Below the pieces are notes generated by a model that saw nothing but the letters and a program-made list of their open reading frames with translations, did no database searches and was not told where the DNA came from. The position numbers and the translations under genes were made by a program. 64,000 bases of DNA from assembly GCF_964355755.1 (NCBI RefSeq), contig NC_092676.1, positions 4,751,888 to 4,815,887 on the forward strand, given 5' to 3'. The DNA is from Antedon mediterranea (lineage: Eukaryota > Animalia > Echinodermata). This document shows positions 11,881 through 42,100 of this stretch, piece by piece; position 1 is the first letter of the stretch; every line of letters starts with the position of its first letter.

Positions 11881-11947
11881 GAATCAAAAGCAAGATTTAT
11901 AGCCATTTAAAACCTTTAATCATTTGAATATTTTTATAAAGTACTTA

Positions 11948-15175: not shown

Positions 15176-15260
15176 CTATTTAAGAGCAAACATTGCAGAC
15201 TTTGATTATTATTTCAGTTTTTAACTTCACATTTTATAACCGCACCACCTGAACCACAAG
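15176..15260 (+). promoter_or_regulatory. Putative TATA-like box and non-coding first exon of the Kazal gene
   Basis: CTATTTAA at ~15176 and donor AAG|gtaggc at 15260. The next exon starts at an acceptor at 15825, 8 nt before the ATG, so a 5' UTR exon is needed. Confidence 0.45.
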
Positions 15261-17949: not shown

Positions 17950-18976
17950 AGAAACTGCAGTACTACTAACTAAACTACTATTATGCTGGAGAAAAGTGAA
18001 TGACTAAAGAGGTACAAAATAAAACGACATGCGAATCGAGCCTCAATTGTTGCTGTTAAATATTCAAAACTGTTTTTAATATTAAAAATAAAAATGTAAT
18101 TTATAGGTCCATGGTTGAATCAAGGTAATCTAACAACAAGATGATGATTTCTGGAGATCAAAGGTTTATCTGTGACTGCGACGCGATCAGCCTTCCCACG
18201 CCCCTTAACAGGCACCGCGCGCCGCGGCGAATACATAGTACAGTATTCTTGGTATTTGTCGCAGCCAGACATAAGATCAAAGTCTGTTACGAGTTCCTAT
18301 CTTGTCAAGGCCAGCTCAATGTCCTGTTGTTAGATTGCATTGGTCGAATGATGTTTGTAACGCGTTGTTTAGTTAGTACTTAGATTTTCCGTAGTTAAAT
18401 TAGTTTGGTGGATTGTTATCACAATATCTTATTTGTATGTTTGGTGTAGATATAGATAGACTCGGGGAAACCATGTCAATATTTTGGTTAGGCCTATAAC
18501 TTTAAAATGTTTTGAAAATAATAAAGTAAAATGTCATAGGGGGAGAAATGTCGTACACATCATGGTTAGTTCGCCGCGGCGTTTTGTTAAGTGCGACTGC
18601 TGCACCATTAAAGGCACAACGGCATTGTTACGTAATTAAAACGTAAATCTGACGTTGCGAATAAAAGATATTTTATGCATAGACATTCACAACACCTGTG
18701 TATTATGGCTGTTATTTTTGTGCGTTAGCCTCTTAAATCTTTGGCGTGTAGGGCCTAAGATACGTCCAATATATAATATGACAACTGTGGCGAAGCTAGG
18801 ATAAGACCGGCTTCATCGAGTTCTTTTAGGCGTAAAGGTAATTTATTACTATTATAAAATATGAGTAATTATAGATTTATCATATCGCCAAAGATAACCT
18901 AAGGCTTATCAGTCATACGTGTATTGTATTTATTTGGATACCGCTCTAAATCTGGCCGGTCAAGTAAAACCTCAAA

Positions 18977-19059
18977 ATGACCAACAAGGAAGGTGGCTCG
19001 GAGGAAAAGAGGCCCGTGTCATCTTACAGATACCATAAGCCTAGGCTGTCTTTTCAAGC
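18977..19059 (+). CDS. Candidate alternative first coding exon of ADGB (MTNKEGGSEEKRPVSSYRYHKPRLSFQ)
   Basis: aaaATG context, 83 nt, GC|gtaagt donor in phase 2, in frame with ADGB exon 2 at 37484. Confidence 0.3.
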
Positions 19060-20939
19060 GTAAGTTTTATTTTATTTTATACTATCGGCATTGTATGGTC
19101 TAACGTTACCAATAGGTTTAGGCCTATATTATTAGGTAGTTGAAATGAAGATCAAACATGGTGTTTATACCAAAACTAAACTATTGAAACTGCATGAATA
19201 TCCTTAAATATACCGAGTTCAACTGATTCATAATTCAGTTATCGTTCAGACACTGAAGATAAAATAGGACTCAGTCAAAAAGTCTACTAAGTACTATTGT
19301 AAATCTGCTGCAAAGTTGCCAGAAGAGACGGCGAATGGGGAATGCATCGTACTTCGAATAAAACTAAACCTGTCTAGGTATTTTCTATACTGTTAGAGTA
19401 CTGGAAATATAAAAATATAAATTGGATTTATAAACACGTGTAATACAATTTTGAACGTTTTTGTTGTATTCGATCATTCTCTATGTTCTTCTCACGTGAA
19501 GTGGAAAAGGACAACATCGTTTCAAAATATTATCAATAATGCCAATTAAAATGTCAACGATCAAAGTGACAAACATGGTAACGGAAATTAACGTTTTCTC
19601 ACCAGGTGACATATATATTTATAGTCTAATTGATATTAAAAAGACATTGTTTAACAAAACCGTCTGTCCATGATTTCGCCGGAAATTCGATGGCAGGATT
19701 TAGTACAATTAACTATGAGCCGCACCTCAAGAAATCGATTCGGCGAAATTATTGAAATGTATTTAGATTGAGCTTGAGGAAATGATTGAACCGACTAGAA
19801 AATAGGTCTGAACTCAAGTTAATGAATAGTAATAAGGACGTCATTGAACGCGCGCGTCTGAAATACAGACGGTAATGAGTACGGCGCGACTGAAATTCTA
19901 GGCTATCGACTTTGCTACTTGAATTCTCATCATGGTTGAATTGATTGACTAAGGGTTATTTGTATACCATCAACATAGGATATCATTACTGGAAATATTT
20001 TATGTTTAGTCGCCGAGACCATTAGGGCCCGAGTATGCCTGGTTCCAAAGTTTAACATTAATTGGACATTCATGCGTTCAAATAATTGTGTTGCTGAAAA
20101 AAATATTGTCAATTAAGAATAATCTTAACATCGGTCAATGGAATTGTATAAAGATTTGTACAATAAAATGAATTTTAAGATAAACAGATGAGGATATTGC
20201 GTCTCATAGTTAGACGGTAATTATGGAACAGGTGAGACATTTTCCAAAAGGGAGCAAGTTTGTCAAATTAGTCAGGTAAGTAGGCTTATCAGATACATTA
20301 AACTAGCTGTATTTTACGTTAGAAATTTTCCAAAAGGGAGCAAGTTTGTCAAATTAGTTAGGTAAGTAAGCCTATAAGATCCATTAAACTAGCTGTATTT
20401 TACATGCACATAATGAACCAGATGTGTCCATTCAGAACAATATGACGATTTCCATATGAAATATTTTGGGCCGGCCCTACACAATTTCTCTCGTTTTTTG
20501 TTTTTGAACTTCTAGCCTATACCACGTTCGGTCATGATAACAGTACCGCTAAATAAATATCAGTTTTATACTACTACTAGTAGTTATAGGTCCATGGTTA
20601 GAGATAAAGGTCTATGCCTCTTTCTCAACAATGTGGGTATATTAACGATAAACATTGTGTTTGAGAGTGTTGATAAAATGAAAGTTAGATATTCTTATTG
20701 CTTGATTAATTAGGCCTAGTACAGTAATTTTATTTATTTATCACAGCAATACAAATGGCATTTTCTGACGTCGTCGGGGCTTGGCACCCGCCTTTTCGAC
20801 AGTCACTCAGTCTTTGTTTTTCTCTCCAATTTTCTGAGGCATCATCTGGAAGAAAATGTGAATACTATATCTAAAAATAATTGTTTTTATTCATACGAAT
20901 CCAAGCATCAAACTATTAAAAGTATTACTATTTAATAAT

Positions 20940-21125
20940 GTTTTAATAACTTATCGTGCTTATAAATTATGTCTCATTTGAGGATTAGGGAGTGAAGTTG
21001 AAAGAATCTTGAGTTACAACCCTGGCACTAGTTCAGGATTGAATCCCAGCACTAGGTCAGAATTGAATCCCGGACCTTTGGATTGGAAGGCAAGCACGTT
21101 AACCACCGAGCTATAACAGCTTCAC
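20940..21125 (-). mobile_element. Diverged tRNA(Gly-like)-headed SINE
   Basis: Minus strand TAGCTCGGTGGTTAACGTGCTTGCCTTCCAATCCAAAGGTCCGGGATTCAATTC: A-box, TCC loop, B-box; no full cloverleaf. Confidence 0.55.
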
Positions 21126-21231
21126 TACATGTTTCTTCTCTAACTATAATAATTGCAGTCAAATGTTTAATCGTCAATACAATTGGTATAGTAACATACC
21201 CCACTTGACCTTAAACACATGTCAATAATAA

Positions 21232-23977
21232 TAGTCCAGTAAAATATCACCTTCACCATTGCATAACGTTAGTAGTCAACGAGATTCTCACCGTAGGTTC
21301 TAAACATTATGTAAAGATCATTTATTGATGTTGCGTCGCGTAAAAGTTGGGATTTGTAGAGAAAATGAAGTTTTTATACGCAGTTTTTGCTTCCTTTCGT
21401 CGTGGTTTGTTTTCATCGGAAAAAATGACGTCATGGGGCATAAGTGAATGACACGCCATTGTCGACATTTGCGTTCGTATTAAAAAGTGAATTTTAAATG
21501 TACGAATATGGTATTAATTATCTGTATTACATTGTATTATTATGTATCACATATATAACAAGTCATTTTGATAAAAAATAAGTCAAATAAATATGAAAAA
21601 CAAAGGAAAATTGTGATTTTTGCATGTCATCTGAAGTGACCTTCCATACAATGTGATAGCGCCCTCTATAAGTATTGATACACTCTCACTTCAAACTGCA
21701 AGCTTTTTGTTGTTATATTCATTCATTCAGAAATACAATTTAAGGAAGGAATCGAATCAAGGGCACATTATTACTTGGTTTATTATATATTTATGATGTT
21801 TTCCTCAAAAATAATTACTAGTATGTACATTTTGCGAATTGTAGATGTACCGGCGGTATGAAATTAAAAAAAGCTGTTTACGCGATCTGTAGCCTAACGA
21901 TATAATAATAATTATATGTATAAAATAATTGTTACTTTTTTCTGATAAATCAGTATGAATATGTTTACTTAGCGCTGCTTTAAGCACCCTATTAAAAAAG
22001 AAAAGAAACAAATTGATTTAAGCCTATTTTTTGTCACGTTTTCGGTAATTAATTGTCTTCTTCGCTCTCACTATCTGATTCGTCACTGTTCTCATCATCC
22101 GAGTTAAAGGAGTCGTTCTCAGCAATCGCTCGTTCAATTCTGTTGGAAGAATCTCGCTTTCACACCACAAAGGCCCCAGCAAATCGTTATCGCCAACGCA
22201 CCATCCGTTATTGTCTTGGGGTTTCGGCAACTCGTAAAATCGGTGTTAGTGCGAGCCTCCACAGATCCTGACTTGATAGTTCGATCATCGTGCGTTGTAT
22301 ATGTTGATGCAAGCATCTACGCGACGGTGGAAAGTTAGCTAATTTTTAAATCAATGTTTTTTTAACACTGATTATTCCGGGGTTTTTTTTCTTGCATTTC
22401 CTGCGAAAAAAGTCAAATCTAAGTTCATCGGTAGGCCTACGCCTTGCTTTCGAACGGAATCCATATAATAACAGGCACGTGAACTATTCCAGTTCCTGTC
22501 AGAAAACATTAACTCTTCTTCTCCTTTCCAACTTTCTCCTACTTTCTTGAAAACCTCTTCAAATTTTGGATATTTTTCGACAAGTTTAATGGCCTTTAAT
22601 TTTCCTTTTCCCTTGAAAGCGCTGGTCGTGCTGCACTTTGTGAACGCATGCAGCCCTAGAATGGCATTACATCGACTTGGGGTGATTTCAGTGGTGGCTA
22701 AACTGGTGAGATTGGTTATTCGTCGATTCCTGCCACTGCCTGTATCGAATAGGACTTTTGCAATAATGGACGCGTGACGAAACAAAATGTAACAATATAA
22801 AAAAAAAAAACATCGCTGTCTTATATGGATCCCGATCGAAAGCAAGGAGTACCGATGAACTTAGATTTTACTTTCTTCGCAGGAAATGCAAGGAAAAAGA
22901 CGGATAATCAGTGTTAAAAAACATTGATTTAGCTAACTTTCCACCGTCGCGTAGATACTTGCATCAACATATACGACGCACGATCGAACTATCAAGTCAT
23001 GATCTGGAAGCTCGCACTCTAACACCGATTTAAGAGTTGCCGAAACCCTAAGACAATAACGGATGGTGCGTTGGCGATAACGATTTGCTGGGGCCTCTTC
23101 CAACAGAATCGGATGATGAGAACAGTGACGAATCAGATAGTGAGAGCGAAGAAGACGATTAATTACCGAAAACGTGACAAAAAGTAAGCTTAAATCAATT
23201 TGTTTCTTTTTTTTAAATATGGTGCTTAAAGCAGCGCTAAGTAAACATTATTATTCATACTGATTTATCAGAAAAAAGTAACAATTATTTTATACATATA
23301 ATTATTATATCGTTAGGCTACAGACCGCGTAAACAGCTTTTTTTAATTTCATACCGCCGGTACATCTACAATTCGCAAAATGTACATACTAGTAATTATT
23401 TTTGGGGAAAACATCATAAATATATAGTAAACCAAGTAATAATGCCCTTGATTCGATTCCTTCCTTAAATTGTATTTCTGAATGAATGAATTTATATAAC
23501 AACAAAAAGCTTGCAGTTTGAAGTGCGAGTGTATCAATACTTATAGAGGGCGCTATCACATTGTATGGAAGGTCACTTCAGATGACATGCAAAAATCACA
23601 ATTTTCTTTGTTTTTCATATTTATTTGACTTATTTTTTATCAAAATGACTTGTTATATATGCGATACATAATAATACAATGTAATACAGATAATTAATAC
23701 CATATTCGTACATTTAAAATTCACTTTTTAATACGAACGCAAATGTCGACAATGGCGTGTCATTCACTTATGCCCCATGACGTCATTTTTCGATGAAAAC
23801 AAACCACGACGAAAGGAAGCAAAAACTGCGTATAAAAACTTCATTTTCTCCACAAATCCCAACTTTTACGCGACGCAACATCAATAAATGATCTTTACAT
23901 AATGTTTAGAACCTACGGTGAGAATCTCGTTGACTACTAACGTTATGCAATGGTGAAGGTGATATTTTACTGGACTA
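21232..23977 (-). mobile_element. Non-autonomous Academ (AcademX-like) DNA transposon derivative forming a 2.75-kb palindrome
   Basis: Termini TAGTCCAG...CTGGACTA with TAA TSD. Inverted arms ~21232-22433 and ~22850-23977. Minus-strand remnants LGLHAFTKCSTTSAFKGKGKLKA (XPG/H3TH-like) and DLANFPPSRR.LHQHI..YQV..W..PKPQDNNGW..LLGPLW; frameshifted. Confidence 0.75.
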
Positions 23978-24116
23978 TAAACACTACTTTTTATCTTAAA
24001 CAAATATAAAAAATGATAAAAATGGTGTAAATCCACAGTGCAACAACGGTCGATGGGCGGAAATAGATTACCGGTACGTATATAATTCGTTTTTTTTTTA
24101 ACTATTACTAAATAAA

Positions 24117-24307
24117 ATGAAGTCTTCTAATGATATCGCCGAAAAGTCTGGAAAACACAAAATCAAGCGCAATGTAGAGACTCAGAAGAATACCCGAGAA
24201 TCGCAGACGGCAATCAACTTGGTAGCGGATCAACGACAACGAGCTTCGAGTGTAGGATCAGGAATGGGCAACTTGATGCCTGTTCTGACCACAAATATGC
24301 GACTTAG
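24117..24307 (+). CDS. Candidate alternative first coding exon of ADGB (MKSSNDIAEKSGKHKIKRN...MRL)
   Basis: aaaATG, 191 nt open, AG|gtaggt donor in phase 2. Confidence 0.35.
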
Positions 24308-24364
24308 GTAGGTGATAAAATCATGGTGTAATATATTAGGCCTACTCCATGCTAAAATCATGTC

Positions 24365-24915
24365 AATAGGATATGGTGTAGGGGGATTTGTTCGCGACGC
24401 TACCACCCTTTACACATGCCTTCTCCTGTCTCTGACGGTGATCCATTCCAGTACAAACGATCTTTTGAGTGTAGGCTAATCTTGATGTTTTGTTTGTATT
24501 ACGGTCGATGAAAGTGTTCGGGTTTTGGGATTAGGTGCAGGCGACGACAATTACTGAAGAAAACGAGGGTATTGTATAGGGATGTGTAGGAGGATTTGTT
24601 CGCGACGCTACCACCCACACATGCCTTCTCCTGTCTCTCTGACGGTCCATTCCAATACAAACGATGTTTGTTTGTCTTACGGTCGATAAAAGTGTTCGGG
24701 TTTTGGGATTAGGTGCAGGCGACGACAATTACTGAAGAAAACGAGGGTATTGTATAGTGATGTGTATGAGGATTTGTTCGCGACTCTACCACCTGCCTTC
24801 TATAGTCTCCGACTGTCCATTCCATAAAATCTAGACGATCTGTTTTTGTATTGGGTCGATGAAAATGTTTTGAGATTATTTTTAGGAGAACTGGAGAAAA
24901 CGAGGGTACTGTATA
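24365..24915. repeat. ~180-bp tandem repeat, ~3 diverged copies
   Basis: Recurring GGATTTGTTCGCGACGCTACCACC and GGGATTAGGTGCAGGCGACGACAATTACTGAAGAAAACGAGGGTATTG. Confidence 0.8.
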
Positions 24916-25845
24916 TTTTCTTAAAGTCTTAATTGGCACCAGATCCATTTAGAAGTAATTATGCATGTTTTCTACCAATGATATGATGATGTAATTTTAA
25001 ATGTTATTTTTTCTGTTTTGCTGAACTTATTGATTTTGTGACACATACAATGAGTTATCAGTGTACTTTACAATGATCCAGATAAGCAGTGACTTGTATA
25101 TCCTTTTGTTAATTTCCACCTGGACCTGTCCTCATCAATCGACATAATTATTCTGTAATGTAATGAAAATGTATGTTAACTAGTTGTTCTAGTCTCAGAG
25201 AAAATGTAATATTGACCCCCAGAGAAAGGTGCTTTTGTGTGCGTACAGAGTTGCCAGATTAGTTCATCAGGTGCACTCGATCGAATGTTATTCTTGTTTC
25301 AGACATTAACCTCAACACTATTTGTTTTGTCTTTTTCCACCACCTTTCAACCAAAATAAAGACCGAATCAGCTCCTCACCCCAATCTTATAAAATCCGCC
25401 AATTCACCAAGATCATTTGTGTTTTTTATGCCTCTTTCCCCCATTTCAGTCGTCGAGGAATATGGTCTCAACAGTTCCTTCTTACCTTTCATAATAGGCA
25501 AAGACCTTAGCCTATCTCCCCAACTTATAAACCTACCACGTTCACACAGATCTTTTTGTGGTCTTTTTTCTTTCTTTCTTTTTTTCTTTCTGTTTTTCTT
25601 TAATTGTTTGTTTCTTTTTTCCCGTTGTCGAGGAGAAGCGCGCTACGCGATTTAAAAATGTACCTATTTTAAAGTGTCTTTGTATCATGAAACCCAAACA
25701 TCCACAACCGTGTTTCACTGTATCAATATATATAAATTTTAACAAAAGAGACTTTATAACAAAACAGATTTTATAAAAGTATATAGATTCACTGATCCAT
25801 AGATAGAATCCATTATCTTTACTATTCTTTATTATTATCAACTGA

Positions 25846-25870
25846 ATTACTATGGAAACATTTGTAAACA
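25846..25870 (+). promoter_or_regulatory. Composite X-box-like plus forkhead motif
   Basis: ATTACTATGGAAAC (one mismatch to the RFX consensus) followed by GTAAACA, ~500 bp upstream of ATG 26366. Confidence 0.35.
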
Positions 25871-26365
25871 AACTACTTCAGGAACAAAAAAAATTGAGTT
25901 TTTCCAAAGCAGTCCTATAGTTAATTCTCGCGCCAAGTGACGTTGATTATCTTCTGTTTTTCTAGTGTTGGTTGAAGTGAGTATATTATTTTGTTTGTAT
26001 AGGCTCTTTATACGAATGCTTTGGCAAGTTTCGTAGCCTTTATGTTTCACACATTTATAATGTTTCGGACACTATTACAGTATAGTTGCATGTTGTCAGA
26101 CAGGTCAATATTTACAGTAGTATCAATTGTTAGTTCTGAGTATATATCGGTAGTCCGGGTACATTTTCTTTCAAATATCGAAAACAAACGCATGCAAATT
26201 ACAACTAGGCCTATAAGTTATGAGTTCACAGAAGCCAGAGCTAGAGAGCATTGAGTATGAAGAAACCTGCAATTAGAAATCCCATTGGTTCCACCTCATA
26301 TGGTTCCGTTTCTATCTTTTTTGTTTTATACAAAATCGATAAACTATAGGTCTTTTTCTGCAGCC

Positions 26366-26631
26366 ATGGAATCTGAGAAAAATCCTAGAAAACGAGATAA
26401 TCTTCCAAAAAACAAGAGCTTGGCAAATTTTCGTCGAAACACTGAACACAGCCTTGCAACGCGACGGAAAGTTGATCAACGAAGACAGCCGTCGGTAACT
26501 GACCTCAGGAGGCGTAAGCTCAACAAAGATGGAAGAATAAGACCGATAAATGAATTAGATCGTAGGCGGAAATCACCAGTAGATTCAGAAGGAAATTCAC
26601 CAGGTTCTGCCGAAGAAGATGAGGACTGTAG
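26366..26631 (+). CDS. Arg-rich coding exon (MESEKNPRKRDNLPK...EEDEDC), candidate ADGB long N-terminus
   Basis: tttttctgcag acceptor then ccATGG, 266 nt open with coding-like composition, AG|gtaaga donor in phase 2. Splices in frame to 28780 or 37484. Confidence 0.55.
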
Positions 26632-27144
26632 GTAAGAAGATTTGATACATTTGGTGGTAGAAGGTTGATTAATCTAACCTATCCTCGCGTGTCACACGCG
26701 TGTTATATTCGTATGAGACACACTAGCACCAGGTACAATTCAATGGGACTTTAGACAGCAAAACTCTGTGTGACGTGCATGTTGGAAGAAATTTGTACTC
26801 ATAACCAGTCAGCAGACAAGAAACTGCAAATGCTGTGTATGTCGCTAGACATGATACCGTACGAAAATCGGGTGATTGTTTACTAGCCTAAGATGTGAAT
26901 GCGCATGAAGTCAATATTTTTTATTAGTAGAAAACAGGCTTTATTTGAGTAAAGGATGTATAACCATTGAGGTTCATTATCTCGAAGATAAATCTTCAGT
27001 AAAAAAAACTATCTTTTATGGGCGCCATGAGTGATTTGTAAATTGTATTAATTTGGTTTATAAATATGTTTTGTTCGTTTAGGTCTATTATATAAGGACA
27101 TAGCGGTTTCACGCATAACCTGTTTTTTTATAAGTCAAAACAAC

Positions 27145-27158
27145 GTTACTATGGTAAC
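27145..27158. promoter_or_regulatory. RFX X-box
   Basis: GTTACTATGGTAAC fits GTTRCY-AT-RGYAAC. Second X-box GTTACTAATGGAAAC at 27520-27534; TGTTTAC forkhead site at 26877. Confidence 0.55.
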
Positions 27159-28771
27159 GAGAGACGCTTTTGCCTGGAAACCAACCCACACCTCATAATT
27201 TACATTACAATACATGCGGTATATCGTTGAATCTGAAATTTCTCCGGTCTTTATTTTTCTAGGGTAATCAATAGTAGTAGTAACCTATTTGATTTGACGC
27301 ACAGCCGTAAAATTTAAACAAAGATATTCAGTGTCTCATTTATCCGTAGTAATAATAACAATCAGATCACTCGTTTTAGAATCAATCTATAACAATTAGT
27401 GAGCGATTTAGAGTCTTAGACCTAATGTATTCACTATTTCAAGAGTTCACCCAAGGACAACTTGACACTGTAGCTTAATAAAATCAATCCTTTTCGAATA
27501 ATATTCATTTTAATGCATTGTTACTAATGGAAACGGTAATAAATCGACTGGTCCCGAAGGATTTTGTTGCAGCAGCGAAACAGGGAGAGGAATGAATCGG
27601 GTCGATTGTAAAAACCTGTTGAGCTGGTTTAGTCGTTCTTACAGTGTTCTCAAATTTGATTGCGTGTCATGAGTAGTTCTCTATTGTGATCAGTATAGTA
27701 AATCTATATGGTTGCAGAGTAGCGCAAATAGTCAACGTTGTATTTTATTTACTAGTATTTTAACACGTTTACGAAGATGTTCGTGTATGGATTATATTTG
27801 ATTGGCTTATTTGAATACGGGGCAGCGGTACGTGAGGAATACTGTTTGTTTCCATGTTTGTATACCGTGGCCTAACAGGCTACGACATGTTTCTATGGAT
27901 AAGTCAAACACAAACTTCGTTAAAATTGTTTGAGTCGACTTTACATTCTTAAATCAAAGGGTGTATGTACGCTGGGATTAACTGTACAACGAACCTCCAC
28001 CAACCTACTGGACTTACAGATTACCACCCTCAAGAATTCAGTTTTTGAGTAAATCGTTTCAGTTCATCGTACTATTAATTTCTAGGCCTACATCTGCTGT
28101 ATAAATCAACTGGATCTTCAGTCTGTTACATGTGACGACTAACTGATTTAAATTATATCACGATTTTAAATTCAACTTTGGTGAACAATTTAATTAAACC
28201 GTCTCCGGAGATAGATTGCAAATTTGTGACAAGCTTCAGTTGAGCCGCCATCAAATTATTGTTGCTATAATTCACGTTGTTCAGCTCTAACGAACATTTT
28301 GCCTAAGAACTTCGTGATATGCTGCGAATAAAATCATTGACTGTTGCAACAATGCAAGTTATCGATTAAAGAAAACGCATTTTCCATTTGGCTTTAAGGA
28401 TTATTTTTCATATGATTTCTATATTTTGATCTTGAACGTAGAGGCTTTTATTACAGTACTGCTTCGACATTGTTAGATCAACTTTACTTAAAGCATCGAT
28501 TTGATCTGTGGAAGAGGAAGTTGAATATAGAAAAGATATAACGTCGGTGCCATATTAGGAAAGATGACGCGGCCGATTCCCATATTAAGAGAGAGGAGCG
28601 TCACATGTTTCCCCCTATACTCTCTGTTTAATTTTGTTGTGCTTCACTGACGAGGCCTTTTTATATTTTAAATTGTAACATTTTGCTGCTATCATACTAC
28701 AAGGAACTTTAAACTTACGGTAAAGAAGCGTTCCGGGTTACTGTTCTTCATATATTTTGAATATTTTAAAC

Positions 28772-29205
28772 ATGTCTAGATTACGCGAAAGAAGGGGAGC
28801 GATAAAATCTCCCGGGATGAGTGGGTATGAACTCAACTTTAACTACATCCAAAACATTCGCGAAGTAGTCTACCCGACTTTACCAATAACCCTGGATGAG
28901 ATATACGATCGAGCAGCAAAGTACACTGATAAACCAATGGCTAGGCCTTTAATATCCGAAGAAGATGACGATGAGGATGACGATGTAGGCCCATTATTGA
29001 TGCGACAATCGAGACGGGGTAGCGATAGGAGGCAATCGGTTATACCGGGCCAGGATGAAAGACGTGGGTACGGTTTATTACCTGGTCAAGAAAGACGCAG
29101 AGGAACAATTGGTTATGCACCCGATCGTCGAACCTCAATGGCAAATGCTAATTCAGAAGTTCGGCGGAGTTCGGCTTTCCCGAGTTTATCCGGACACTCA
29201 GAAGA
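28772..29205 (+). CDS. Coding exon with RRxS repeats (MSRLRERRGAIKSPG...HSE), candidate ADGB N-terminal exon
   Basis: 434 nt open and GC-rich. Starts at ATG 28772 or at acceptor tctag|A 28780 (phase 2). Ends GA|gtaagt in phase 2. Confidence 0.6.
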
Positions 29206-30114
29206 GTAAGTTTAGTGGCACGAACTATGATATTACAATTTACTTTCAATAGCCTACTATAATACATGTAGACCTATATAACTACAATTATCACATATGA
29301 AAATTAAACAAATAAAACAAACTATTTTTGTCAAATTGAATTGTCTAGGCCTATCCTATAAAAATAGTATTTTTAAATCCACCTTATTTTGTCAATTTGT
29401 AGGCTCCTATACCATATAAAACTGTTTTCATCATAGAATTTATGTTATAATATTCATGGTAGACCTACATATATTAATATACTAAAACAGTTTACAACAT
29501 AATATTATGATATAGGCTAATTTTACATTTAGATTATAACAAATATATATAATTTCGTTTTTTCAGTTGCGTTTTAAAAATCTTCAAAAAATTCAGTTCG
29601 GAAAATAATTCCGGATTGAATGTAATCATCTCCAGCGAATGTGTTATATAGGCCTACACTAATGATTGAATAGTCTGTTATATTCTTTAATACTAAAATA
29701 GTAGGCCTAATAATAATTTGTAGTTAATTTTAAAATTCGCGCGTAAAACACTGAACCAATAATAGGCCTACCGTCATGATTCCATTGGCTAAGTTGACGC
29801 CGTGACTTTTCTGTTGGTAGGCCTATAAACAATTATGCCGTTTTTTGGTAGGCCTATGGGTTTCATTCCTCCTCATATCTAAAAATAAGATTGAAAATCA
29901 AAAAGGGGCCGAAATTTAACAAATTTTAGGAATATACGTACGAAAAAAAAATGTCAATTAATCTACCGCCCTCTGTAGTTCATGAACTTTCAACTCGGTA
30001 CCTAACGACAGCGTTGTAGCCAAGAACGCTATTAATAATTGTTTGTTTTCTTGGTTAAAAAAAACATATTTTTTATACAAATAACAACTTTAAACTCATG
30101 GTGTCAATTGAAAT

Positions 30115-33100
30115 ATGTCATCAAAGCAAGCTAAAGAGAAAAAATCATCAAATCGCGTGAATTCAGCTTCAAATAATAAGGAGTAAGTTTCCTACTAAGT
30201 CTTGATTGATGATGATTGATCTTTCTTTATTTTATACAATCACAGCACGGAATGGCTGGCCAGCCAACCCAGTCTGGCTACTGGATTAAGCCTAGGCTCA
30301 GGCCTAGGCTATACTCTGTAGTAGACCTAGAGAAAAGCTCCTATTTTTATTATTGCGTAGGTTACTTTGCAGTTATATGTCATGATGGGTATGCAAACAC
30401 TTTTCAATTTCATATTATTTGTTAATTTTAACCGGGTTATTAATTTACAAAAATGTAGGCTATTCACCATCTGCATTTCATAATTAATATTATTATTATT
30501 ATTTTAAAATTAAGACGACTTTTACTCTCGCCATCCATAATTAATTGCCTAGGCCAGGTCAAGAGAAATGTTAGTTTGAGGAGGGGGCGTCAATTACAGG
30601 ACAGTGTGCAAAACATCATATTCTGGTAGCCTCTTGTGAGTACGATAATTGTACTGAGTACTTTTGTTATAGTTTATACAGTAGTACTGTAGTAGCCATT
30701 CTTATTGTTTGAAGCCCTAATTGACAAACAAATTAATTCACTGTAAACAGGGAGGTATTTTATACCTCCCACCTGTAAAGTATACTACTACAGTCTCTCT
30801 TAAAACGCTAATCGTCGTTAGACATTGCGCGTCTCACTTGTGTTCGCCACTCAGTACGTTTTTGAGCAAGCATGTTTATAGGTCCGCGTGTGAAAAGTTC
30901 TGTTTCCTTTTTTATGTTTGCCATCCATGTTGTTTTTGGTCTTTCTCTGAGCCTCTCCGAGTGCGATCTTAGCTGGTGTGTTTTCATTTAAACGGTGCAG
31001 GTGAACGTTCTTACTCCACTCAATTTCTCCTGTTCTTTTGTACAAATCTTCATTTTTTATGTTCTCCGGCCACCTTATACCTATTATTCTCTTTAGGAAT
31101 TTTCTTTGAAAGACATCTATTTCGCTTTTTAGTGATGCTGTCATTGTCCACAGTTCACAATTATACAGAAAGATGCTTGTAATGTATACGTTGAAGACTC
31201 TCATTTTCAGGTTTATTGTTATTTTTCTATTTTGGAGAGTATGTGATTTATCTTGCTGAAAGCTGCTAATGCGAGACATTTTCTGTTATTAACTACTACT
31301 ACTACAGTACACCACCATAAAACATAATTATTAATACTGCAGTAAGAATAAGAGAAAAATGACTACTACTGTGTTGAGATTTCAAAGAGTAAACAATAAC
31401 ATAATTGTATCAAAACTTTCTTTCCTAGATTGTTCAAACAATTTGTTATTAAAACGACCTAATTTATAGGTCCATGATTAGACAATCAAATAGGTCATTA
31501 TGAATATTAATATTAACCTTTAGTAGTTTGCAGCTTCTAGTCTACTGTACTATGTGTCAAAGTCTAAATTCCATTTATTCAAGTGTGAATAATTGCTGTT
31601 TTACTGTCTGTATTATCAGGAACATAATATTTCGCCGGTGTTTCCTCAACCAATTGTTAAACAAATTTTGTAGACATATTGCTCAATCACGCGAAAAATA
31701 TTTGTGCTTTTGTTGAACACTATGTCTAAAGAATCAACCCAGAGAGTAAGGTTTTTCTTGTTTGATGAAACAGCGTTACAATCTATATCAGAACTTAGCG
31801 AATCGTCAAATCAAACGGGTCAAAGGCCTAGGAGTCCACGACCACGGAGTCCACGACCACGGAGTCCACTAAGTCCAACAAAGAGGTATGTACTTACTGT
31901 CGTTTTCACAGTACAGTTAGCTTAAGTCTGAGTTACTGTATAATTCTATCTACTGTAGACCACGTCCTAAACCCCAGGAGTTGAATCTATTAAAGTTGCT
32001 TACCCAAAAAATGATCTTTGCTTTGAATTAAGTCAGATTTATTAATGATTGTAAGACTATGATCAACAGCACACAGACTATCCCTTATTCTTTTTGTGTA
32101 CAGTCCTAAAGATCTTTGTAGTACACATTTGAAATGTATGTGCACAGGACCTATGGCTTAACATCTCATCCGAAGGACAAGGTAATAAGATTAAAGCATG
32201 ATTAAAGTACTGTATCTTGCCTTATGGATACAAGGAAGCAACACAAGCGGTTCTCAAACCTATGCCTCTCTTACATGCTAGTCGGACATCCATACCATTC
32301 CGCCATATCTTTTGGGATATTTTAATCATTGGAACTAACAATTACATTGTTATTTAATACTGTATCTTTTTAGACCTTTAGAATAAATAAATATTTTGGC
32401 AATACAATAGTAATGTGTACTCAACAATAAGGAAATATATTTGATTGTAATTTTTTACTAGTTTATTAAACAGAGTATTTTTATTTTACTTTCATTTCTT
32501 GCTTTTGATGCCTTTATTTGACAACAAAATGTGATGTGCCCATAAATGGATATGGTGAGGTCATATCACTACCAATCCTATATTTGGGCATATCACTACT
32601 ATATTTGGCCACATAACACTTTTTTTGTCTAACTAATTAGTCTATTAATAAGAATAACTTTATTTACCGTAGTTGGAATATGTTAAATTTGAGGATTGGA
32701 AGGTTTTTAGAAAATGTGTTACCTTTTTATTTTTTATTTAATAGTAAATTTGAAATTTTTTCCCCTTAAGAATCAGCTTTTACCATCAACCACTGCTTTA
32801 AAAAAAAAAGTACTGTACATTAAAATGTACAAACCATTGACAGACTATAGAGGGCAGTTTTGTTATTATTTGGTATCTAGGGTCCATGATGAATATTCAT
32901 GAGTTATCTAGGTGTGTAGTTATTCCATGGTTCGTTGAACATTGACAATTTGTGAACAGTCTGTGTATGAACAAAGCTCATACAGTCTGTTTACTCTTTG
33001 TTGTTCAATACTAATATGTTACAATTTTGTTTATAGAACATTTCTAAAAAATGTTTAAAGAAATGTATTATTTTATTTCCTACAATTTAATTTATTGTGA

Positions 33101-36100
33101 CATTCTCCAACTCAAAATTGACCTGGGATGACCATGTCCATGCCATTGTTTCCAAAGCTAAAGGTATGTTGGGCTTTGTTTGGAGTGTGGCTGGACATGC
33201 TTCGACCAGTGCATTTTGTCTTTGTACAAAAGTCTTGTTTTGCCTGGTCTGGAGTATGCGCAACCTGCTTGGTTTCCATGGACGAAGTCTTTGTCAGATC
33301 AGCTTGAGGGGGTCCATAGGAGAGCAACTCGTCTTGCTCTCAAACAGCATCGTGGACAGATGTGCTTTGAGAAGAGGTTGAATTTGCTTTCAGTTTCATC
33401 TTTTTCTTTTAGAAGAGATAAATTTCTTATTATATTTTGTTTTAAGGTTCTGGTGGGGTTTCTGGACTGCAGCACAGTTCATAACTGTATTTTAATAAAT
33501 ACTCGTCACAATGATCGCTTGTGCTTCAGACATCAAGCATCAAGGAGACAGGCTTTTTTCCATTCTATAGCAATCAGGTTACCCCGTGTCTGGGACCAGC
33601 TTCCCAGACCGTTGACAGATGCTGCAGGTCCTAGAAAGCCCATCAGCCTTCATTAGAAAAGTTCATATTCATTTTGATTCGCTGTAACTGTATTTTGTCT
33701 TTACCTCTTTTATGTGTAAACTGACTTTGGGGTTGGGTCAACCGGCTCAGCTACAGTGATTAAGTTCACTTAGGTTGACCCACCTGGTCTCCCCAATTTC
33801 AGTTCTTTTTGTTTTGTATATACTTAAATAGACCAAATAAATAATGAAATGAAATGAAATGAATTTAAAAGGGATTAATAATTTAATAATTAATAATTTT
33901 AATGTCCTCCAGTCAAGTCTCTGAATTGGGACTCTCAAACTCAGCCACCTTCTGCTCTATAGGATGTTTGCGAAGTAGTTGTTTTACTTATTTTGACTTT
34001 ATAGTGTCTTGTGCATATGAGAACTTGCTAAGCATCTGACCAATTGGCAAGTCTCCTTTCACAGTAGTTTCAAAACCATATACTCTAGTGGTGGTGAAAT
34101 TAAGTAAATACATTTGATTTTATGGTATTGAAATAGATTGGAAAAATACCATTGATCCATGTAATATAGGTCAGTTATTCCATATTTGGTATGATTATGT
34201 TTGTCATTATCATTAAATCTTTGATTCATTTGATTAAGAACTGTAAAACTGAGATACCCTATCCATCAGACAATTGTGTGACCATTAGCCTCTCTGACGT
34301 TACTACGCTTAATAGAGAAAGTGTAAATATCATTGGATGGTACCGGTACTATTAAACAGATTTTTCCTTTGATTATTCCAAACAACCTCATTCGTCAGGT
34401 TGTATGACCTGTACAACTGTTCATTTCAGTTCTACAAGTCTCAATATTCAGTATAAAGAAAATTTTTCACCCTGATGCTACAGATAACAGTTTTTTTATT
34501 TGTGAAATAGAGCTCTTTTTGATACTGTACCTGTCTATTGTTCTAAGGTATTGCATCCAATTGATTTTTATCTGTTTGTCCTGGATTCCTATTTATTATC
34601 ATTCATGTGTTATTGATTTCTGCTAGACGTTTATTGAATGGATGAATGAAGCGTCTTACTCTTCTTGTTTTCAAGTGTCTACTGTACATTCACTTAACAT
34701 AATTGCTTAGAACTGACAAGCATACTGTATATAAGAACACATGTACTTCGACCACCATTGAACACTATCTTATATGAAGTAATGTGGCATCTGTATTTTT
34801 ACTTGGTGGATATTTATTGAATGGACCAACTGTAACTGTAATTCATCCTTCAAATGTTGGTTTAGTCCTTAAACATTTCCGCAGCAATTTGAAGTCTGTA
34901 TTCTTACCTCAACTTAGACATTTTTGAATGGACTGTTTCTTTAATGTTCATGGCTAGAAGCGACAAGATTCTGAAAACATTTTCGCAGCAATTTGAAGTC
35001 TGTATTCTTACCTCATCTTAGACATTTTTGAATGGACTGTTTCTTTAATGTTCATGGCTAGAAGCGACAAGATTGCGAAAACATTTTCGCAGCAATTTGA
35101 AGTCTGTATTCTTACCTCATCTTAGACATTTTTGAATGGACTGTTTCTTTAATGTTCATGGCTAGAAGCGACAAGATTGCGAAAACATTTTCGCAGCAAT
35201 TTGAAGTCTGTATTCTTACCTCAACTTAGACATTTTTGAATGGACTGTTTCTTTAATGTTCATGGCTAGAAGCGACAAGATTCTGAAAACATTTTCGCAG
35301 CAATTTGAAGTCTGTATTCTTACCTCATCTTAGACATTTTTGAATGGACTATTTCTTTAATGTTCATGGCTAGAAGCGACCAGATTCCTAAAACATTTCC
35401 GCAGCTCAGCAATTTAGAGTCTGTATTCTTTCTTACCTTAAAGTGATAGATATTTATTGAATGACCTGTCAAGACCGGCAGCTTTTTTTTTTGCTTACAA
35501 GTGTCTTCTGTACATACTGTAATTCATGCCTAGAAGCGACATGCACTCATGAACAGGTTTTTGCAATGTGGAAAATGTATATTTAATAAACTTTAGCAGT
35601 CATAATTTATGGACCTTGATTGCAACAGCAACACTTGTATCGTTATATCGCTGTAACAGTTTAGTTGTATAGATGTTCCTAAAGGATTAGTTTGAAAAGA
35701 AAGAAAAGAGTTGCAGATAAAGAAATACCACATTAATAGAAATTGAGTACAGTAGGATCATAGAAGAAAAGTTGGAACATAACAATTCTGTATACAGACT
35801 GAATGGTTGTTTCAGATAACAAGAACTTTTGTGGATACTTCAATTCTGTGAGAATAGAAATCATATCAGTCATGTCTGTTATTCCCTTGAACATTTTCAA
35901 CTTTTTCTGAATGGTACTGCAGATAAAAACTTTGTTTGCTCCACTTCAAGAAGATTGTTTTGTTCCTCTGTAAACTAAATGCAGTAATGTATGGTATAGT
36001 CATCTTATAAAAACAGCTATCTTGAAGAATTTGAAGAGATTTTAAAACTATAAAAATAATGAGAAGATTGTCTCCAAGACCGCCAACAACAGGAAGACAA

Positions 36101-39100
36101 AGCCGTACTGGTTCTGGCAAGACATTGTCATTGAAATCGCTGTGGAGGTAGAGTTTTCTTCAAAGTCTCCAAACATAATTCCCATAGAATTTGTAATAGT
36201 GTACTGTAATAGCATAGAGAAAGAAATAGGTTCTCCAAAGTGATTAATTCACTAGAATTAAGCTCTGTCTACACTATCAAACTAGTTTGACAAATAAGTG
36301 TGGTGTGCCCAAATATGGTAGTGATATACCCAAATATGGCAGTGATGTGCCCAAATATGGTAGTGGTATGACATTATGTCCATATATGGGCACATTACAT
36401 TTTTTGTCACATACCGTAAAGTTTGATTGTGTAGACAAGGCTTTAGTTTCCAGAACCACCTTATAGAATATGTGTGGGGACTGTAACATCATGGATGAAT
36501 TAAGCTCGGTCTACTGTATGCTATCAAACCAATGGACATGATGATGTCATATCACTACCATATTTGGGCAAACTAGTAGACCGAGATTAAGAGACTAATA
36601 GTCTGCATTTGGATTTTTGCAGTTTTTTGTTGAAATTTATATCTGGTTGAATCAATAATTATTAGAAAGATAATAAACTTTGACCCTGAAAAATATACTT
36701 GAAAACATGCACCACAATAGAACAAGGCTGCTGATTGCTGAATGTTTTTAAAAGCATTTCACAAATAAGATGTTGTTTTAGCTCCTTAGCCTGCAATCGG
36801 CTCAATTACTACAATACTAAAGAACCAGTTTTGTAACAATGAAGATTAAATCAGCACTAATTGTATTTTCTCACTCATATTTGCTTTTCTTGTGAAGCAA
36901 GGCCAAATAATAAAATAAATGTTGCTCATGGTGATGTAAATAATGATGAAAAAATTCTGTATTTGCACATTTGTTTGTAAGGTGATTTTGATGAGCTCAT
37001 TCGACATTTAGTGGTGCTAGCAGCTGGTCTGATCATTATTAGTTTCTTCACATATCTGTAGTGATTTTAACACATTTTCCGTACTGTATGTAGTTGCAGT
37101 AAAGTATGCCAATATCTTTCAAAGCAAGCGTTCTCAAAGTAAAGTTGTAAGTTGTTTGTAAACTTGTTAATAGTTTGGTTCTGCTCTTACTTGTACTGTA
37201 GGTGATCATTTTTTTAACAACTTACTTTGACACTTTTTGCTTTGAAACTGACTGGTCTTTTCTTTAGCTGACACTGCATGATTGGCAAGATTGTGATTCT
37301 CTTTCAGTGCTGAGTACATTGATGAGTTCTTCAAGACAACCATCTGCTGTACAATAACAGCAAAAGCCTCTGTTAATAATGAATTATGAAACCATTTTTT
37401 TACATAGTATCTGTACAATTTGTTTTAAAGAAAGCTGCTTTCTTTCAACTATCTAAGTTGTATCTTTTGTTTTCTCACTTCAGAGCTGCGTCAATCGCTG
37501 CTAGCCTTGTGGGAGCTCAGGAAGGGAAGAAGCAGAGGATTGTATTATGGCCTGAATTTAACGATGCTGACATTAACACAGAAAGATGGGTAAGCGAAAC
37601 ACATTTATCTAATACAATACATGTATATGGTAAAATAGTAATTGAAACAGCAGTGTATTGTTCCAGTGCTATGAGGTAGCCACTATAAGTTTTTTTTTAA
37701 ATTTAATTTTTAATGTAGGATGCTGCCCACAAGACAAATCAAAAAGATCAGAAGGGGAAGTCTCCTAGTCTGGTAAGCAAGTTTGAAATTAAAGTTATAT
37801 TATTGAAATTAAATTGAAGTGAGCCCTCAATAGTTATTTACAACTTTTCAAACTATTCATGAATAAAATGATGATACAGAACTGTCAAAGTTTAGAGAAG
37901 AAATACTGTAGTATGAATAGATTTATACGTCACATTTAATTGTCTGTTTGTCCTTTAGCATTTCTTTGATGATCCAGATGGACGTATTGATATGCCTCCA
38001 TCGCTACGAAGTAAGGTAGAATGTTGGAAGCGCCCTCATGAGTTTATAACTGACAAAGCCATTGTGGTATATGATGCAGACAACAACAATGACTTTGATT
38101 TGATGTCTAAAAACGAGCACATTCATGATTGTGAAGTAAGTATAAGAGTAAGAATTGTGGTTTGGTGAGAATCACTGATCTTCTATCTTTTGTTTGAATC
38201 GTAGATAAATCATCTCAATTCCCACCAATGCCGTATATGGTAGCACAATGTATGTTTGTCATGTGAGGAATATAGTCACCTATTATTAAGCCCTTGGCAC
38301 TTGTTGTATTTCATCAGCTAATAATGCTATAAATAGATATTTTGGGAGGTTTTTTTGGAATGAAAAGTTTGTTTGAACAATTTATAATAAGAAATACCTG
38401 GACAGTGAGTGAATCATAAAACAACAGCATAATATTAACTTTAAATTAGTTCCAAATTTTTAATAAAATAGAATATATATATTTCATATAATTATTAATA
38501 TAAGATAATATAAGATAATAAATAATAATAAATATGTCTATATATTATTTTTGTTTATATCTATAACATTAAAAATGCATCACATTATTTATTCAAACTA
38601 CAGTACTGTAGTAAGATAACTAACTAACCTTAAACACATTACTGAATGGAGCACCACAACCAAGGGTACTTAGATACATAATTTATGATTGTATTATTTT
38701 AAAGTCTAACATTGCTTTGGTTTCATCAACATTCAATAGATATGTTAACCATAGTTATTTCGGGATTCCTCCGTGTGTATTTATAGCAGAGAGTATAATA
38801 ATAATAATATTAATAATAATAGTTTAATCTTGGACCTATAAATTAGGTTCATAGTATACTATAATGAACCTTTGGACTCAGTTCAGACATTTACGCAAAC
38901 AATAACAGTGTAGTATGACATGTTTATAAACAATAACAATTAAATTAATTAAACTTTTTCATTACTTCTGTATTAAAAGTAATGGCTTAAGAGATTCTTT
39001 GAACCAATGGGCACAACAATGAGCCTAACCAATGAATCAAAAATGATAATTTGGAAAAACCCAAACAATGTTGTGGAATATTTAAAACTGTGGTTAGTGT

Positions 39101-42100
39101 AAGTTGTTTTTGTATTAAAGTTTACTTTGTATATTAAAATTTTTTCAACTATATTCTGTTTATTAAATGATGTTTCAAACTTATTTTAAATCTAAAAACA
39201 ATTTAATTTAAATTCAATTGATGATTATAGAAAATATTGAGATTAAACACTGAAATATTCATTCCAATATATAGGAAGTAATTTTACAGCCTAAATAATT
39301 GCTGATATAAATTACTATAAACTAGATGGAACGCTCGCTTCGCTCGCGTACCATCTAGGTCGTGCCCACAGATGGTTCTCGAATACACAGTATTTCCAGC
39401 GAGAAAAAAAATGGAGATTTCAAATGTACGTACCGCAGGACTATAATACATTATCGTTTACAGAAACGAATAAATATACACAATGATTTATGTAGTCAAC
39501 CAAAATTAGCACCCTGGGAATTACTTCCAAGAGAGAAACAAAATGAGTCAAATTTTTTTATTTGGACTCATTTAAACAAACTCAATTTGTGTTTTGTATG
39601 TAACATTAAGGGTTGAGGGATGGGGGAAGAAGATAGGTACAAAGAGGAAACATTTTAAAATATATTCTTATCCACTCAGTAACGAAATATTGTTTTTAAT
39701 GTTTTATAGGCCTATAAATAATATACCACTAAATACAGTAAAACATTTACGATTTAATACGGTACTTTGTTAAAACTCTCACTGTCATAGTCGATTGAAA
39801 TAGTAAAGTACATGTAACGATACACCACTACGACGTTTATATATTTTTAAATTATTAATTAATACAAACGTTGAGAAGCAACTGTCAGTAATAACGTTTA
39901 TTTATTTGTTTATTATATGTTTATAATCTAACAGTAGGGCCTACCCACACTCACAGTAATAAAGTTTATTTGTATATATTTTTATATTACATCTAACAGT
40001 ACCAACACTCACAGTAAGAAATTTGCGATTCAAATTGGGATCAAAAGTGGTTAATACCTTAACAGTATTGTACAGCATTGCAATACTATTTATGTTTATT
40101 CTCCAAGGGGGCCCATAAATCTAAATCTATACCTCTATGGTTAAACCAAATAATTTGGAATGTTTATTTGTATATTATATGTTTATAATCTAACAGTAGG
40201 GCTTACCCACACTCACAGTAATAAAGTTTATTTGTATATATTTTTATATTACATCTAACAGTACCAACACTCACAGTAAGAAATTTGCGATTCAAATTGC
40301 GATCAAAAGTGGTTAATACCTTAACAGTATTGTACAGCATTGCAATACTATTTATGTTTATTCTCCAAGGGGGCCCATAAATCTAAATCTATACCTGTAT
40401 GGTTAAACCAAATAATTTGGAATGTTCCATTCATCACAAATCAATACATTTGTAAAAACGTATATTAAATGTATCAAAATAGTATTTTTTAAAGAAAATC
40501 GGCCTGTCTTCAACATTATGATGCTGTACTCGAACTGTTCAACCGGTTTTCAGCTATTAAAAACAATTATCGTAGGAGGAGATAGGAAAATGCGAAGCCT
40601 CCTCGCATTTTTGTGGCGGGTATTTTTCAAGATGGACATCCATTAGACAGTGTATACCACGATCGGAAAACACCCCTATTTGGGGCAAATCGTTGAACCT
40701 AAATTCGTTTTAATCGTCAATAACTAATTATCTAACTTAATTTAATTAGTAAACAGGGTTACATCAGGTGGTTAAAATCAGTACCGAAAGTACGAACCAA
40801 CTTTATATACCATCGAGTAAAAATTCTAGAAGTAAGGCGCGATTTACCGAATTTTGCCCTTACGTAAATTTATATATAGATGATTGTATAACAATACAAT
40901 TGTTAATAACAAAATATAACTTAATTGAAACCATTGCTGTCTTCTGTAGCGATGACGATGATATTGTCGTTTCCCACAATCTCGATTCCCTCTTTCTTTT
41001 TGATTATTGTCTGGTAGCAGTCCATTTTTTCCAACAATGCCATTTTACTTCTCTCACTTTTTACAACCAAAATGTCGCCGTTTATCTGCAACTTTTTTTT
41101 TTCATTTTCGGTCTTCATGAAAGTACCACTAGATAACAAGTTTACTTCGTGTTGCGATACGTTAGTTGGTCGATGGCGATTTATGATAACTGTTTTCGTT
41201 TCTTCATTGGCAATAACGATAGTGTTGCCATTTCCTTTGATAGTAATTTGCTCTTTTTTAGTTTTCATTAGAAAGTTTGACATCTTATTATTGTTTACTA
41301 AAAGATAGTAACTTTATCTTGATGTAATTAGTAGACTTGTTCAAATTTTTATTAGCGTGGTTCATTATATAGCGTCTGGGTGTAAATTCCCAATTTTGTT
41401 TTTATAAATATTACATTAATAATTATTTGTAATGATAATGAAAAATAACTTTAATTAGTTGGAATGTTACAGTTAATATAATGCAAATATAAGGTTCTTT
41501 TGTTCAGTTTGACCAATCAATGATCTGTATTTTGATTTGTTGTGGAGTTTTGGAAAGTTTTAAAATGTCTGATACATGATGACTCATTACCCTCTATGTA
41601 GTTGCCATTAGAACAACCACCATCATTCTCTCTGGTTTTCTCTCCCACTTTCTAACTGATTCTTATTTCATTTTTTTTTATTATTTAGATGTAAACAAAA
41701 CATTTTTTTTCTTTCTACAGTTCAATATTAATAAGGAAACATTTTTTGTTTTCATTTTTCAATTTATTTCAACTTTTTGGATTTTTACCACAACAATTGA
41801 GGTCTGTCTTTCAGTCTGTTTACTGTCCTGAGTTTTTTCAATCAATTTTCAAAATCTTTTATTTTGTTTTAAAAGTTTTAAAAGTATTATGTGTATTAAG
41901 CACTGAAATTGTTACTGCTGTGACTATAAAAGTGCAACAATGTATGAACTGTGTTTCAAAGTGGAAGTTTTATGAGTAGTCATTGTTACAATAAACAAAT
42001 GCAATAAATGTATCATGGTTCTTAAAGAAAGCTTGCGATTATTGCATGAACATGTTAAAGATTAAGTTAAGTATAGTAACTGCAGTAGAATATTTTTTTA

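Follow-up and report, generated by a model that had tools for sequence, protein, structure and literature searches.

Candidate alternative first coding exons upstream of a constant androglobin body in Antedon mediterranea

The androglobin (ADGB) gene of Antedon mediterranea very probably has an array of alternative starts: judged from their sequence, a set of unrelated phase-2 segments 5' of exon 2 are likely to be mutually exclusive first coding exons, each with its own promoter, that would give the protein different N-terminal tails. We analyzed a 64,000-nucleotide stretch of contig NC_092676.1 (the window), in which the constant body of the gene begins at a common exon 2 (37484..37589, plus strand) whose acceptor at 37484 takes phase 2, as the preliminary description had noted. 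Together with exons 3–23 as annotated (37719..62773, plus strand), this makes 22 body exons that span 37484–62773 and hold an open frame of 953 codons, and the gene extends beyond the window. The late exons match Pfam Androglobin_II (E 1e-19) and Globin (E 9e-05), while 13 of 14 matches to the body are full-length homologs, the best at 61–66% identity and the named ones all androglobin. The predicted protein thus combines the calpain-like N-terminal region, ADGB-specific domains, and permuted globin that define an androglobin. A search of solved structures returned only FAP42 and calpains and no ADGB chain, and a direct protein search with exon 4 scored none of five candidates, though homologs are present in the same collection. 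According to the available text of the sources, ADGB is a C1b/C1f subunit in Tetrahymena (PMC8175508), is regulated by FOXJ1/RFX2 (PMC7949040), and is almost always single-copy, with its role in flagellar motility reported as unknown (PMC13331133).

Seven candidate first exons of 68 to 434 nt, all on the plus strand, had been proposed upstream of exon 2, and inspection of each confirmed that all seven begin with ATG, are free of stops, and end at a GT in phase 2. To rank them without regard to phase, we scored every ATG..GT segment of at least 60 nt in 18000–37483 with a donor matrix and a codon model for which the 22 body exons served as training set; a generic donor matrix missed the true first exon, and the window-trained matrix was used instead. 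The six highest scores (7.2–18.6) belonged to the segments starting at 26366, 28772, 31722, 18977, 30115, and 24117, all of which are in phase 2. Minus-strand controls reached 8.1 at best, which places 24117 (7.2) inside the control range. Local dinucleotide shuffles (300 + 300) yielded 0.3–0.5 segments scoring at least 7, a cut-off chosen after inspection of the data, and never more than two in phase 2. In a test free of any cut-off, the top six were all in phase 2 in only 1 of 600 shuffles. It had also been cautioned that an open frame ending in xxG-TAA or xxG-TAG automatically mimics a phase-2 donor. The frames do stop within one codon past the donor in six of the seven segments, but this mimicry proved to be a small effect, as a donor this good precedes only 10 of the 1229 stop triplets in the region.

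The individual segments differ widely in how often shuffling produces an equal phase-2 segment. The 26366..26631 segment (88 codons, basic, with two RRxS sites; score 18.6) was equaled in 1/800 shuffles, as was 28772..29205 (144 codons). The counts were 23/800 for 31722..31885 (54 codons with SP/RP repeats; score 11.3), 29/800 for 18977..19059 (27 codons, donor GTAAGT; score 10.9), and 43/800 for 30115..30182 (22 codons). For 24117..24307 (63 codons), the count rose to 139/800, and for 36059..36147 (29 codons), which has a poor donor (GTAGAG, score -3.5) and a total score of about 0, it was 705/800. Therefore, 36059 does not rise above the chance level, and 24117 taken alone is a weak candidate. 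The earlier warning was that the short candidates might be chance; 26366, 31722, and 18977 exceed chance, and 31722 was correctly singled out as free of stop-codon bias, since its frame continues 13 codons beyond the donor. An inverted-repeat element ends 139 nt before the start of the 24117 segment. Overall, we infer that the seven include five or six real exons, with 30115 and 28772 nearly certain, 26366, 31722, and 18977 probable, 24117 possible, and 36059 doubtful.

Two of the segments have clear homologs. Among 34 annotated N-termini and further representatives, 30115 matches the canonical ADGB N-termini of Owenia, P. flava, and Clavelina at z 8–10, identifying it as the canonical first coding exon. 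It had been claimed that no other segment resembles a known ADGB start, which is incorrect, as 28772 also resembles annotated ADGB N-termini (z about 14–25), with S. purpuratus isoform X28 at z 24.7, A. japonicus X13 at z 17.4, and P. flava X9 at z 13.8. This type of N-terminus occurs in S. purpuratus X27, X28, and X30, in A. japonicus X13, and in 10 of the 15 listed P. flava isoforms, such that in a sea urchin, a sea cucumber, and an acorn worm it is fused directly to exon-2 sequence. It was not found in the 86 of 148 new representatives that carry the exon-2 motif, and a direct protein search with 28772 scored none of 763 candidates, though homologs are present in the same collection. The 28772 tail contains the motif YP.LP..LDEIYDR, an acidic run, and five RRxS/T sites (shuffle p 0.0005), and all four tails of the class have clusters of [RK][RK]x[ST] sites (5, 4, 4, and 3; shuffle p 0.0005–0.035). 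A single-sequence model of this tail is mostly coil at low confidence (mean pLDDT 55). For the remaining five segments, comparison with the annotated N-termini (238 pairs) or representatives (511 pairs) gave z of at most 4.2, which is not significant after multiple testing; the highest value, among the 238 pairs, is a weak, end-anchored likeness between 36059 and a P. flava N-terminus. No Pfam family exceeded its cut-off for any of the seven.

Alternative N-termini of ADGB are quite widespread among other animals, and RefSeq predicted isoforms of P. flava, Styela clava, S. purpuratus, A. japonicus, and corals already include them, homologs of 28772 among them. In annotated isoforms or contigs from 9 of 12 taxon groups, at least two unrelated kinds of N-terminus meet at the residue where exon 2 starts; it should be noted that the isoforms of other species are mostly computational RefSeq models. 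We counted seven kinds in Styela (18 sequences), five in P. flava (among 15 listed of 34 members), three each in Oculina and Stylophora, and two each in Logan coral contigs, P. damicornis, Clavelina, Apostichopus, and Ciona, while a single kind was seen in Glandiceps (6/6), Owenia (4/4), and S. purpuratus (3/3 seen). One Ciona N-terminus, hydrophobic and ending in YR, resembles intron read-through. The five to seven N-termini of P. flava and Styela are mostly species-specific. Other classes are shared: one non-canonical class is common to Stylophora, Oculina, and a Logan contig, another to Stylophora and Pocillopora, and a third to Styela, Clavelina, and Ciona. The annotated isoforms each begin with a single class of N-terminus, and every one of the 31 listed junction residues has a possible codon with A in the third position, a condition that joining this exon 2 in phase 2 imposes. 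In coral genomic fragments, the residues leading up to this convergence point differ and are intron-like, indicating that an acceptor lies there too. In our literature search, no paper described or interpreted alternative first exons or N-termini of ADGB.

Direct transcript evidence in A. mediterranea consists of one spliced contig, which does not name its upstream exon. This contig (record 3 of run X1, a run not on record as RNA whose contig proved to be spliced) joins exon 2 to exon 4 and has 30 unplaced letters upstream. Judging from edge extension by the aligner, the last letter of its upstream exon is not G, as would be the case for 30115, 28772, or 18977. The contig is unbroken from these 30 letters through exon 2, as would fit one dominant upstream exon; we did not count this observation, because contigs drop rare forms. 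A second contig (record 2, depth 2.7) covers 35976–36177, including the whole of 36059–36147, and runs 30 letters past its donor, a length one letter short of the bridging rule and equally compatible with splicing and its absence. CpG depletion begins immediately after 30115, suggesting that the four exons upstream of it lie outside the long-term methylated gene body; these four are probably minor or cell-restricted. Within the CpG-depleted intron, 31722 has a local CpG o/e of 0.89. A perfect palindrome at 27145..27158 (no strand assigned), an RFX X-box-like site, is the sole strict match in the window, has near matches at 27169 and 27520, and is a likely ciliary promoter or enhancer. In our X-box scan, such sites occurred near 28772 only, and blastn detected no motif shared among the 400 nt upstream of the exons; both are weak tests.

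The preliminary description had likened the locus to UGT1 and the clustered protocadherins. The underlying design, variable first exons joined to a constant body, is upheld by two distinct annotated ADGB N-termini, one homologous to 28772 and the other to 30115, and by the shared convergence point in other animals, but the specific likeness is not. UGT1, GCNT2, and the clustered protocadherins do place tandem variable first exons of one reading phase before constant exons, and, according to the available text, their variable exons are similar duplicates of near-equal length that code for folded domains and have a promoter motif in common (PMC1885805). In contrast, the ADGB segments vary more than sixfold in length, match no Pfam family above cut-off, with the one modeled tail mostly coil at low confidence, and have no conserved promoter motif in the weak tests described above. 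Their mutual likeness is negligible (highest z 2.8 across 21 protein pairs; DNA matches short, up to 40 nt). As the segments are not paralogous, the arrangement is plectin-like rather than UGT1- or protocadherin-like. PLEC has about a dozen first exons spliced into a common exon 2, and its short N-termini set expression and location (PMC8468861, available text); likewise, several candidate coding first exons of the same phase precede a common ADGB exon 2, where unrelated N-termini of 22–144 residues would meet. Plectin differs in being a vertebrate cytolinker whose isoform functions were shown in knockouts, whereas ADGB is axonemal, its tails are mostly basic and Ser/Arg-rich, and its proposed design extends from corals to deuterostome invertebrates. 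Mammalian ADGB has the same calpain-like region, Androglobin_II, and permuted globin, and 30115 corresponds to the canonical N-terminus, but two studies, in their available text, deal with a single promoter and a single first exon (PMC7949040, PMC11119863).

Several other explanations would account for parts of these data. It is improbable that only 30115 and 28772 are real and that the other five are chance or untranslated segments; the five do lack homologs, and 24117 and 36059 fall within the chance range, but 26366, 31722, and 18977 each exceed chance, all in phase 2, of which shuffling yields two at most, and relatives have similarly numerous, mostly species-specific N-termini. We consider it very improbable that each segment is a small gene of its own or the first exon of another gene lying before or within ADGB. 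The prompt stops after six donors and the position of four segments outside the CpG-depleted body would fit such genes, but few stop triplets mimic donors of this quality, in three species a 28772 homolog is fused to ADGB, and, in agreement with the earlier account, 18100–37400 contains no convincing downstream exon that would belong to a separate gene (best score 8.3, apart from 26364 itself, against 9.9–44.6 for the body exons, which were themselves the training set). The 26364 site is an acceptor (score 3.8) just before the 26366 ATG and suggests a non-coding exon in front of 26366. It also favors an equally improbable arrangement, in which the segments would be cassette exons strung together in a single longer 5' region and not alternative starts that exclude one another. 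Against chaining, none of the other six ATGs has an acceptor scoring at least 2 within 250 nt upstream, the 26364 acceptor needs phase 1 whereas the other segments supply phase 2, and annotated isoforms carry a single N-terminus class each.

A more serious possibility, although still a rather unlikely one, is that the array is real but mostly reflects tolerated turnover of testis promoters, such that the tails are near-neutral and the promoters alone matter. Open testis chromatin favors new promoters, and most of the tails are of low complexity and cannot be aligned between species. The 28772 motif, however, has been conserved between echinoderms and a hemichordate, every tail of its class has a kinase-site cluster, and coral and tunicate N-terminus classes are kept across genera. 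Promoter turnover can hold for the species-specific exons, and alternative first exons with functional tails for the conserved ones. Under this preferred reading, a constant axonemal protein would be given different basic, probably disordered N-terminal tails. The 30115 exon would be the main, broadly used start, and RFX/FOXJ1-type control may direct use of the other first exons to certain ciliated cells or sperm stages, with the tails adjusting how ADGB is targeted or regulated in the C1b projection of the central pair. With its tail, 28772 would contribute a conserved helix and a cluster of PKA-type sites, which would fit a cAMP-regulated, likely sperm, form; in Ciona, sperm are enriched in PKA relative to gill cilia (PMC4427456, available text). 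A further and quite tentative proposal is that the array has been kept since the cnidarian-bilaterian ancestor, with each ciliated cell type or sperm stage picking a promoter and thereby the tail carried on the central-pair projection, and that the 28772 tail of ambulacrarians acts as a PKA-switched module of sperm type.

One practical consequence is that sets of "longest isoforms" used in ADGB phylogenies mix non-homologous N-termini. The named exons also offer testable parts, both as exon-specific probes for single-cell data and as a conserved tail with kinase-type sites. An array of first exons would let one ADGB gene give different cilia or sperm tails a differently tipped protein and, if it is conserved, would show how a single gene can act in different ways in sperm, larval, and epithelial cilia. 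Should the ancient-array reading prove true, ADGB would have diversified its protein without gene duplication.

The seven segments proposed as alternative first exons of the androglobin gene (ADGB), each named here by its start, lie at 18977-19059, 24117-24307, 26366-26631, 28772-29205, 30115-30182, 31722-31885, and 36059-36147. As the preliminary description had it, all seven begin with ATG, lack an internal stop, and end at a GT donor in phase 2. A stop follows within one codon of the donor in six of the seven frames, while the 31722 frame stays open for 13 codons further. The DNA is AT-rich (32.5% GC). The exon 2 acceptor consists of a pyrimidine tract and CAG, with the exon itself starting at 37484, and the downstream gene body, located by eye and script, comprises 22 stop-free exons of 953 codons. 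Judged by its sequence, this gene is ADGB: late body exons match Pfam Androglobin_II and Globin, and a protein search with one of them returned ADGB proteins, the best from echinoderms and hemichordates (61-66% identity).

We scored all ATG-to-GT segments of at least 60 nt in 18000-37483 with a donor matrix and a codon model, both trained on the 22 body exons and both ignoring phase. The six top-scoring segments were six of the proposed seven, all in phase 2 (18.6, 16.8, 11.3, 10.9, 10.0, and 7.2), followed by a runner-up at 4.7; control regions (the minus strand of the same region and of 38200-64000, and the plus strand of 11200-18000) reached 8.1 at best. Two sets of 300 local dinucleotide shuffles gave means of 0.52 and 0.30 segments scoring at least 7, evenly spread over the phases, with at most two in phase 2 in any of the 600, and in only one of these did phase 2 account for all of the top six. 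Individually, the level of each segment was reached in 1 (26366), 1 (28772), 23 (31722), 29 (18977), 43 (30115), 139 (24117), and 705 (36059) of 800 shuffles. The earlier caution that a frame ending in xxG-TAA can mimic a phase-2 donor was fair, but the effect is small, as a donor scoring at least 4.4 precedes just 10 of 1229 stop triplets. A scan of the interval revealed nothing convincing as an internal exon of a different gene, in agreement with the initial impression. Two additional short phase-2 ATG..GTAAGT segments, 20223-20275 (9.2; within an 86-bp tandem duplication) and 37106-37146 (7.5), may be chance occurrences, since one phase-0 segment scores 9.3.

Sequencing run X1 is spliced RNA, and one of its contigs (record 3; 375 nt, depth 14.8) contains, in order, 30 unplaced letters, exon 2, an exon-3-sized gap, and exon 4. 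The aligner overran exon edges where letters matched (37590, 37958, and 38137) but begins exactly at 37484; therefore, the upstream exon lacks a final G. Segments 30115, 28772, or 18977 would fit, whereas the other four would not.

Annotated ADGB isoforms from 12 taxon groups, obtained by cluster look-ups, were each cut at the exon-2 start, and short fragments missing that start were left out of the counts. In nine of the 12 groups, unrelated N-termini converge upon the exon-2 start residue: five kinds among 15 of 34 P. flava members, seven among 18 Styela clava sequences, three among six in Oculina and among three in Stylophora, two among four Logan coral contigs and among six Clavelina sequences, and two among two each in Apostichopus, P. 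damicornis, and Ciona. A single kind appears among the sequences of Glandiceps (6), Owenia (4), and S. purpuratus (3). Discounting one Ciona N-terminus that resembles intron read-through gives a cautious figure of eight of 12. The XP isoforms are computational models, presumably resting on RNA-seq, while the Logan proteins likely derive from transcripts, because their 5.7-7.4 kb contigs are too short for the unspliced gene. Each of the 31 junction residues can be specified by a codon whose third base is A, which a phase-2 join to exon 2 demands. P. flava P0003 and P0025 also differ in the body, both right after exon 2 (two 60-residue bodies follow the junction) and elsewhere; thus, internal alternative splicing adds diversity.

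The 30115 peptide matches the canonical ADGB N-terminus (z 8-10). Contrary to what had been supposed, it is not alone in resembling a known start, since the 28772 peptide matches annotated N-termini of S. purpuratus (X28, z 24.7), A. japonicus (X13, z 17.4), and P. flava (X9, z 13.8), with a core of YP.LP..LDEIYDR plus an acidic run. Both classes occur together in P. flava, as they do here, and further non-canonical classes are shared among corals and among tunicates. No significant match was found for 18977, 24117, 26366, 31722, or 36059, although for 36059 an end-anchored resemblance to one P. flava form is suggestive (z 4.2, 238 pairs). A coral ADGB fragment gave 262 matches among 1.84 billion representatives, and 86 of the 148 new ones listed carry the exon-2 motif. 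The canonical class recurs among the new representatives listed; the 28772 class is absent from those 86, in a library that holds one protein per cluster and cannot show isoforms.

In both 17501-21200 and 24000-30100, CpG o/e is 1.05-1.07; the value is 0.62 after the 30115 exon, 0.89 around 31722, and 0.2-0.4 in 31901-37480. Across 30200-37480 it drops sharply (~1.1 to 0.2-0.6) directly after exon 30115, likely a gene-body methylation edge. CpG depletion marks gene-body methylation in many invertebrates, and if it does so here, 30115 would be the principal start in long-term use. Just one strict X-box match occurs in the 64 kb, at 27145, and it stands, like two near matches (27169 and 27520), 1.2-1.6 kb upstream of 28772; FOXJ1 and RFX2 control mammalian ADGB, according to passages of PMC7949040. 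Within the array, a CpG-rich foldback-like element (21231-23978; inverted arms of ~1.2 kb, 90% over 1248 nt and 99% in parts) ends 139 nt before ATG 24117, its centre holding a broken transposase-like frame (minus strand, 22860-22375) for which no Pfam match was found. A short, very high-copy MITE-like repeat, built of 21-bp subunits and having inverted ends, lies at 36255-36576, with copies at about 8255, 11970, 17500, 32512, 43000, 53015, and 60017; in each of the four runs mapped, its read depth is in the hundreds of thousands. Tandem arrays occupy 14199-14610 and 48766-49702 (30-bp units), 34871-35405 (104-bp unit), and 39901-40426 (262-bp unit). Directly upstream of the array, a small gene with three Kazal-like exons (15836-17949; Pfam scan of the last exon only) likely encodes a secreted Kazal-domain protein, and the gene at 104-11059, which we take to be RPGR-like, has RCC1 repeats, long acidic exons, and a CAAX-like C-terminal end, and would be a second ciliary gene adjoining ADGB.

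The array of candidate first exons is real, and the comparisons strongly support a constant ADGB body bearing mutually exclusive N-termini. The variable-first-exon design itself is known from other genes, and the array would work like the plectin first-exon set, as far as passages of PMC8468861 describe it. The UGT1 and protocadherin comparison drawn previously does not hold, because the ADGB segments are non-paralogous, spread sixfold in length, match no domain family, and yielded no common promoter motif; the variable exons of such clusters are paralogous (PMC1885805). ADGB isoforms with alternative N-termini are already in RefSeq, unremarked. No description of alternative ADGB first exons was found in the mostly open-access literature searched, nor in passages of PMC13331133, PMC7949040, PMC13696810, PMC11119863, PMC9249397, and PMC13023373, the first mentioning two unspecified Hydra transcript variants.

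Promoter choice by cell type would pick the N-terminus, and the tails would act through charge and phosphorylation. All seven segment peptides have positive net charge (+1 to +8), and in each of the four species the 28772-class tail carries three to five [RK][RK]x[ST] sites (shuffle p 0.0005-0.035), compared with 6-8 per 1600-1800 residues of ADGB body. A low-confidence single-sequence model of 28772 places a helix at residues 41-51, within the conserved motif, followed by coil. Because Tetrahymena has ADGB as a distal C1b subunit (passages of PMC8175508) and PKA is richer in Ciona sperm than in gill cilia (passages of PMC4427456), our best guess, at least as apt to be wrong as right, is that the 28772 form may be a sperm-type, PKA-regulated ADGB.
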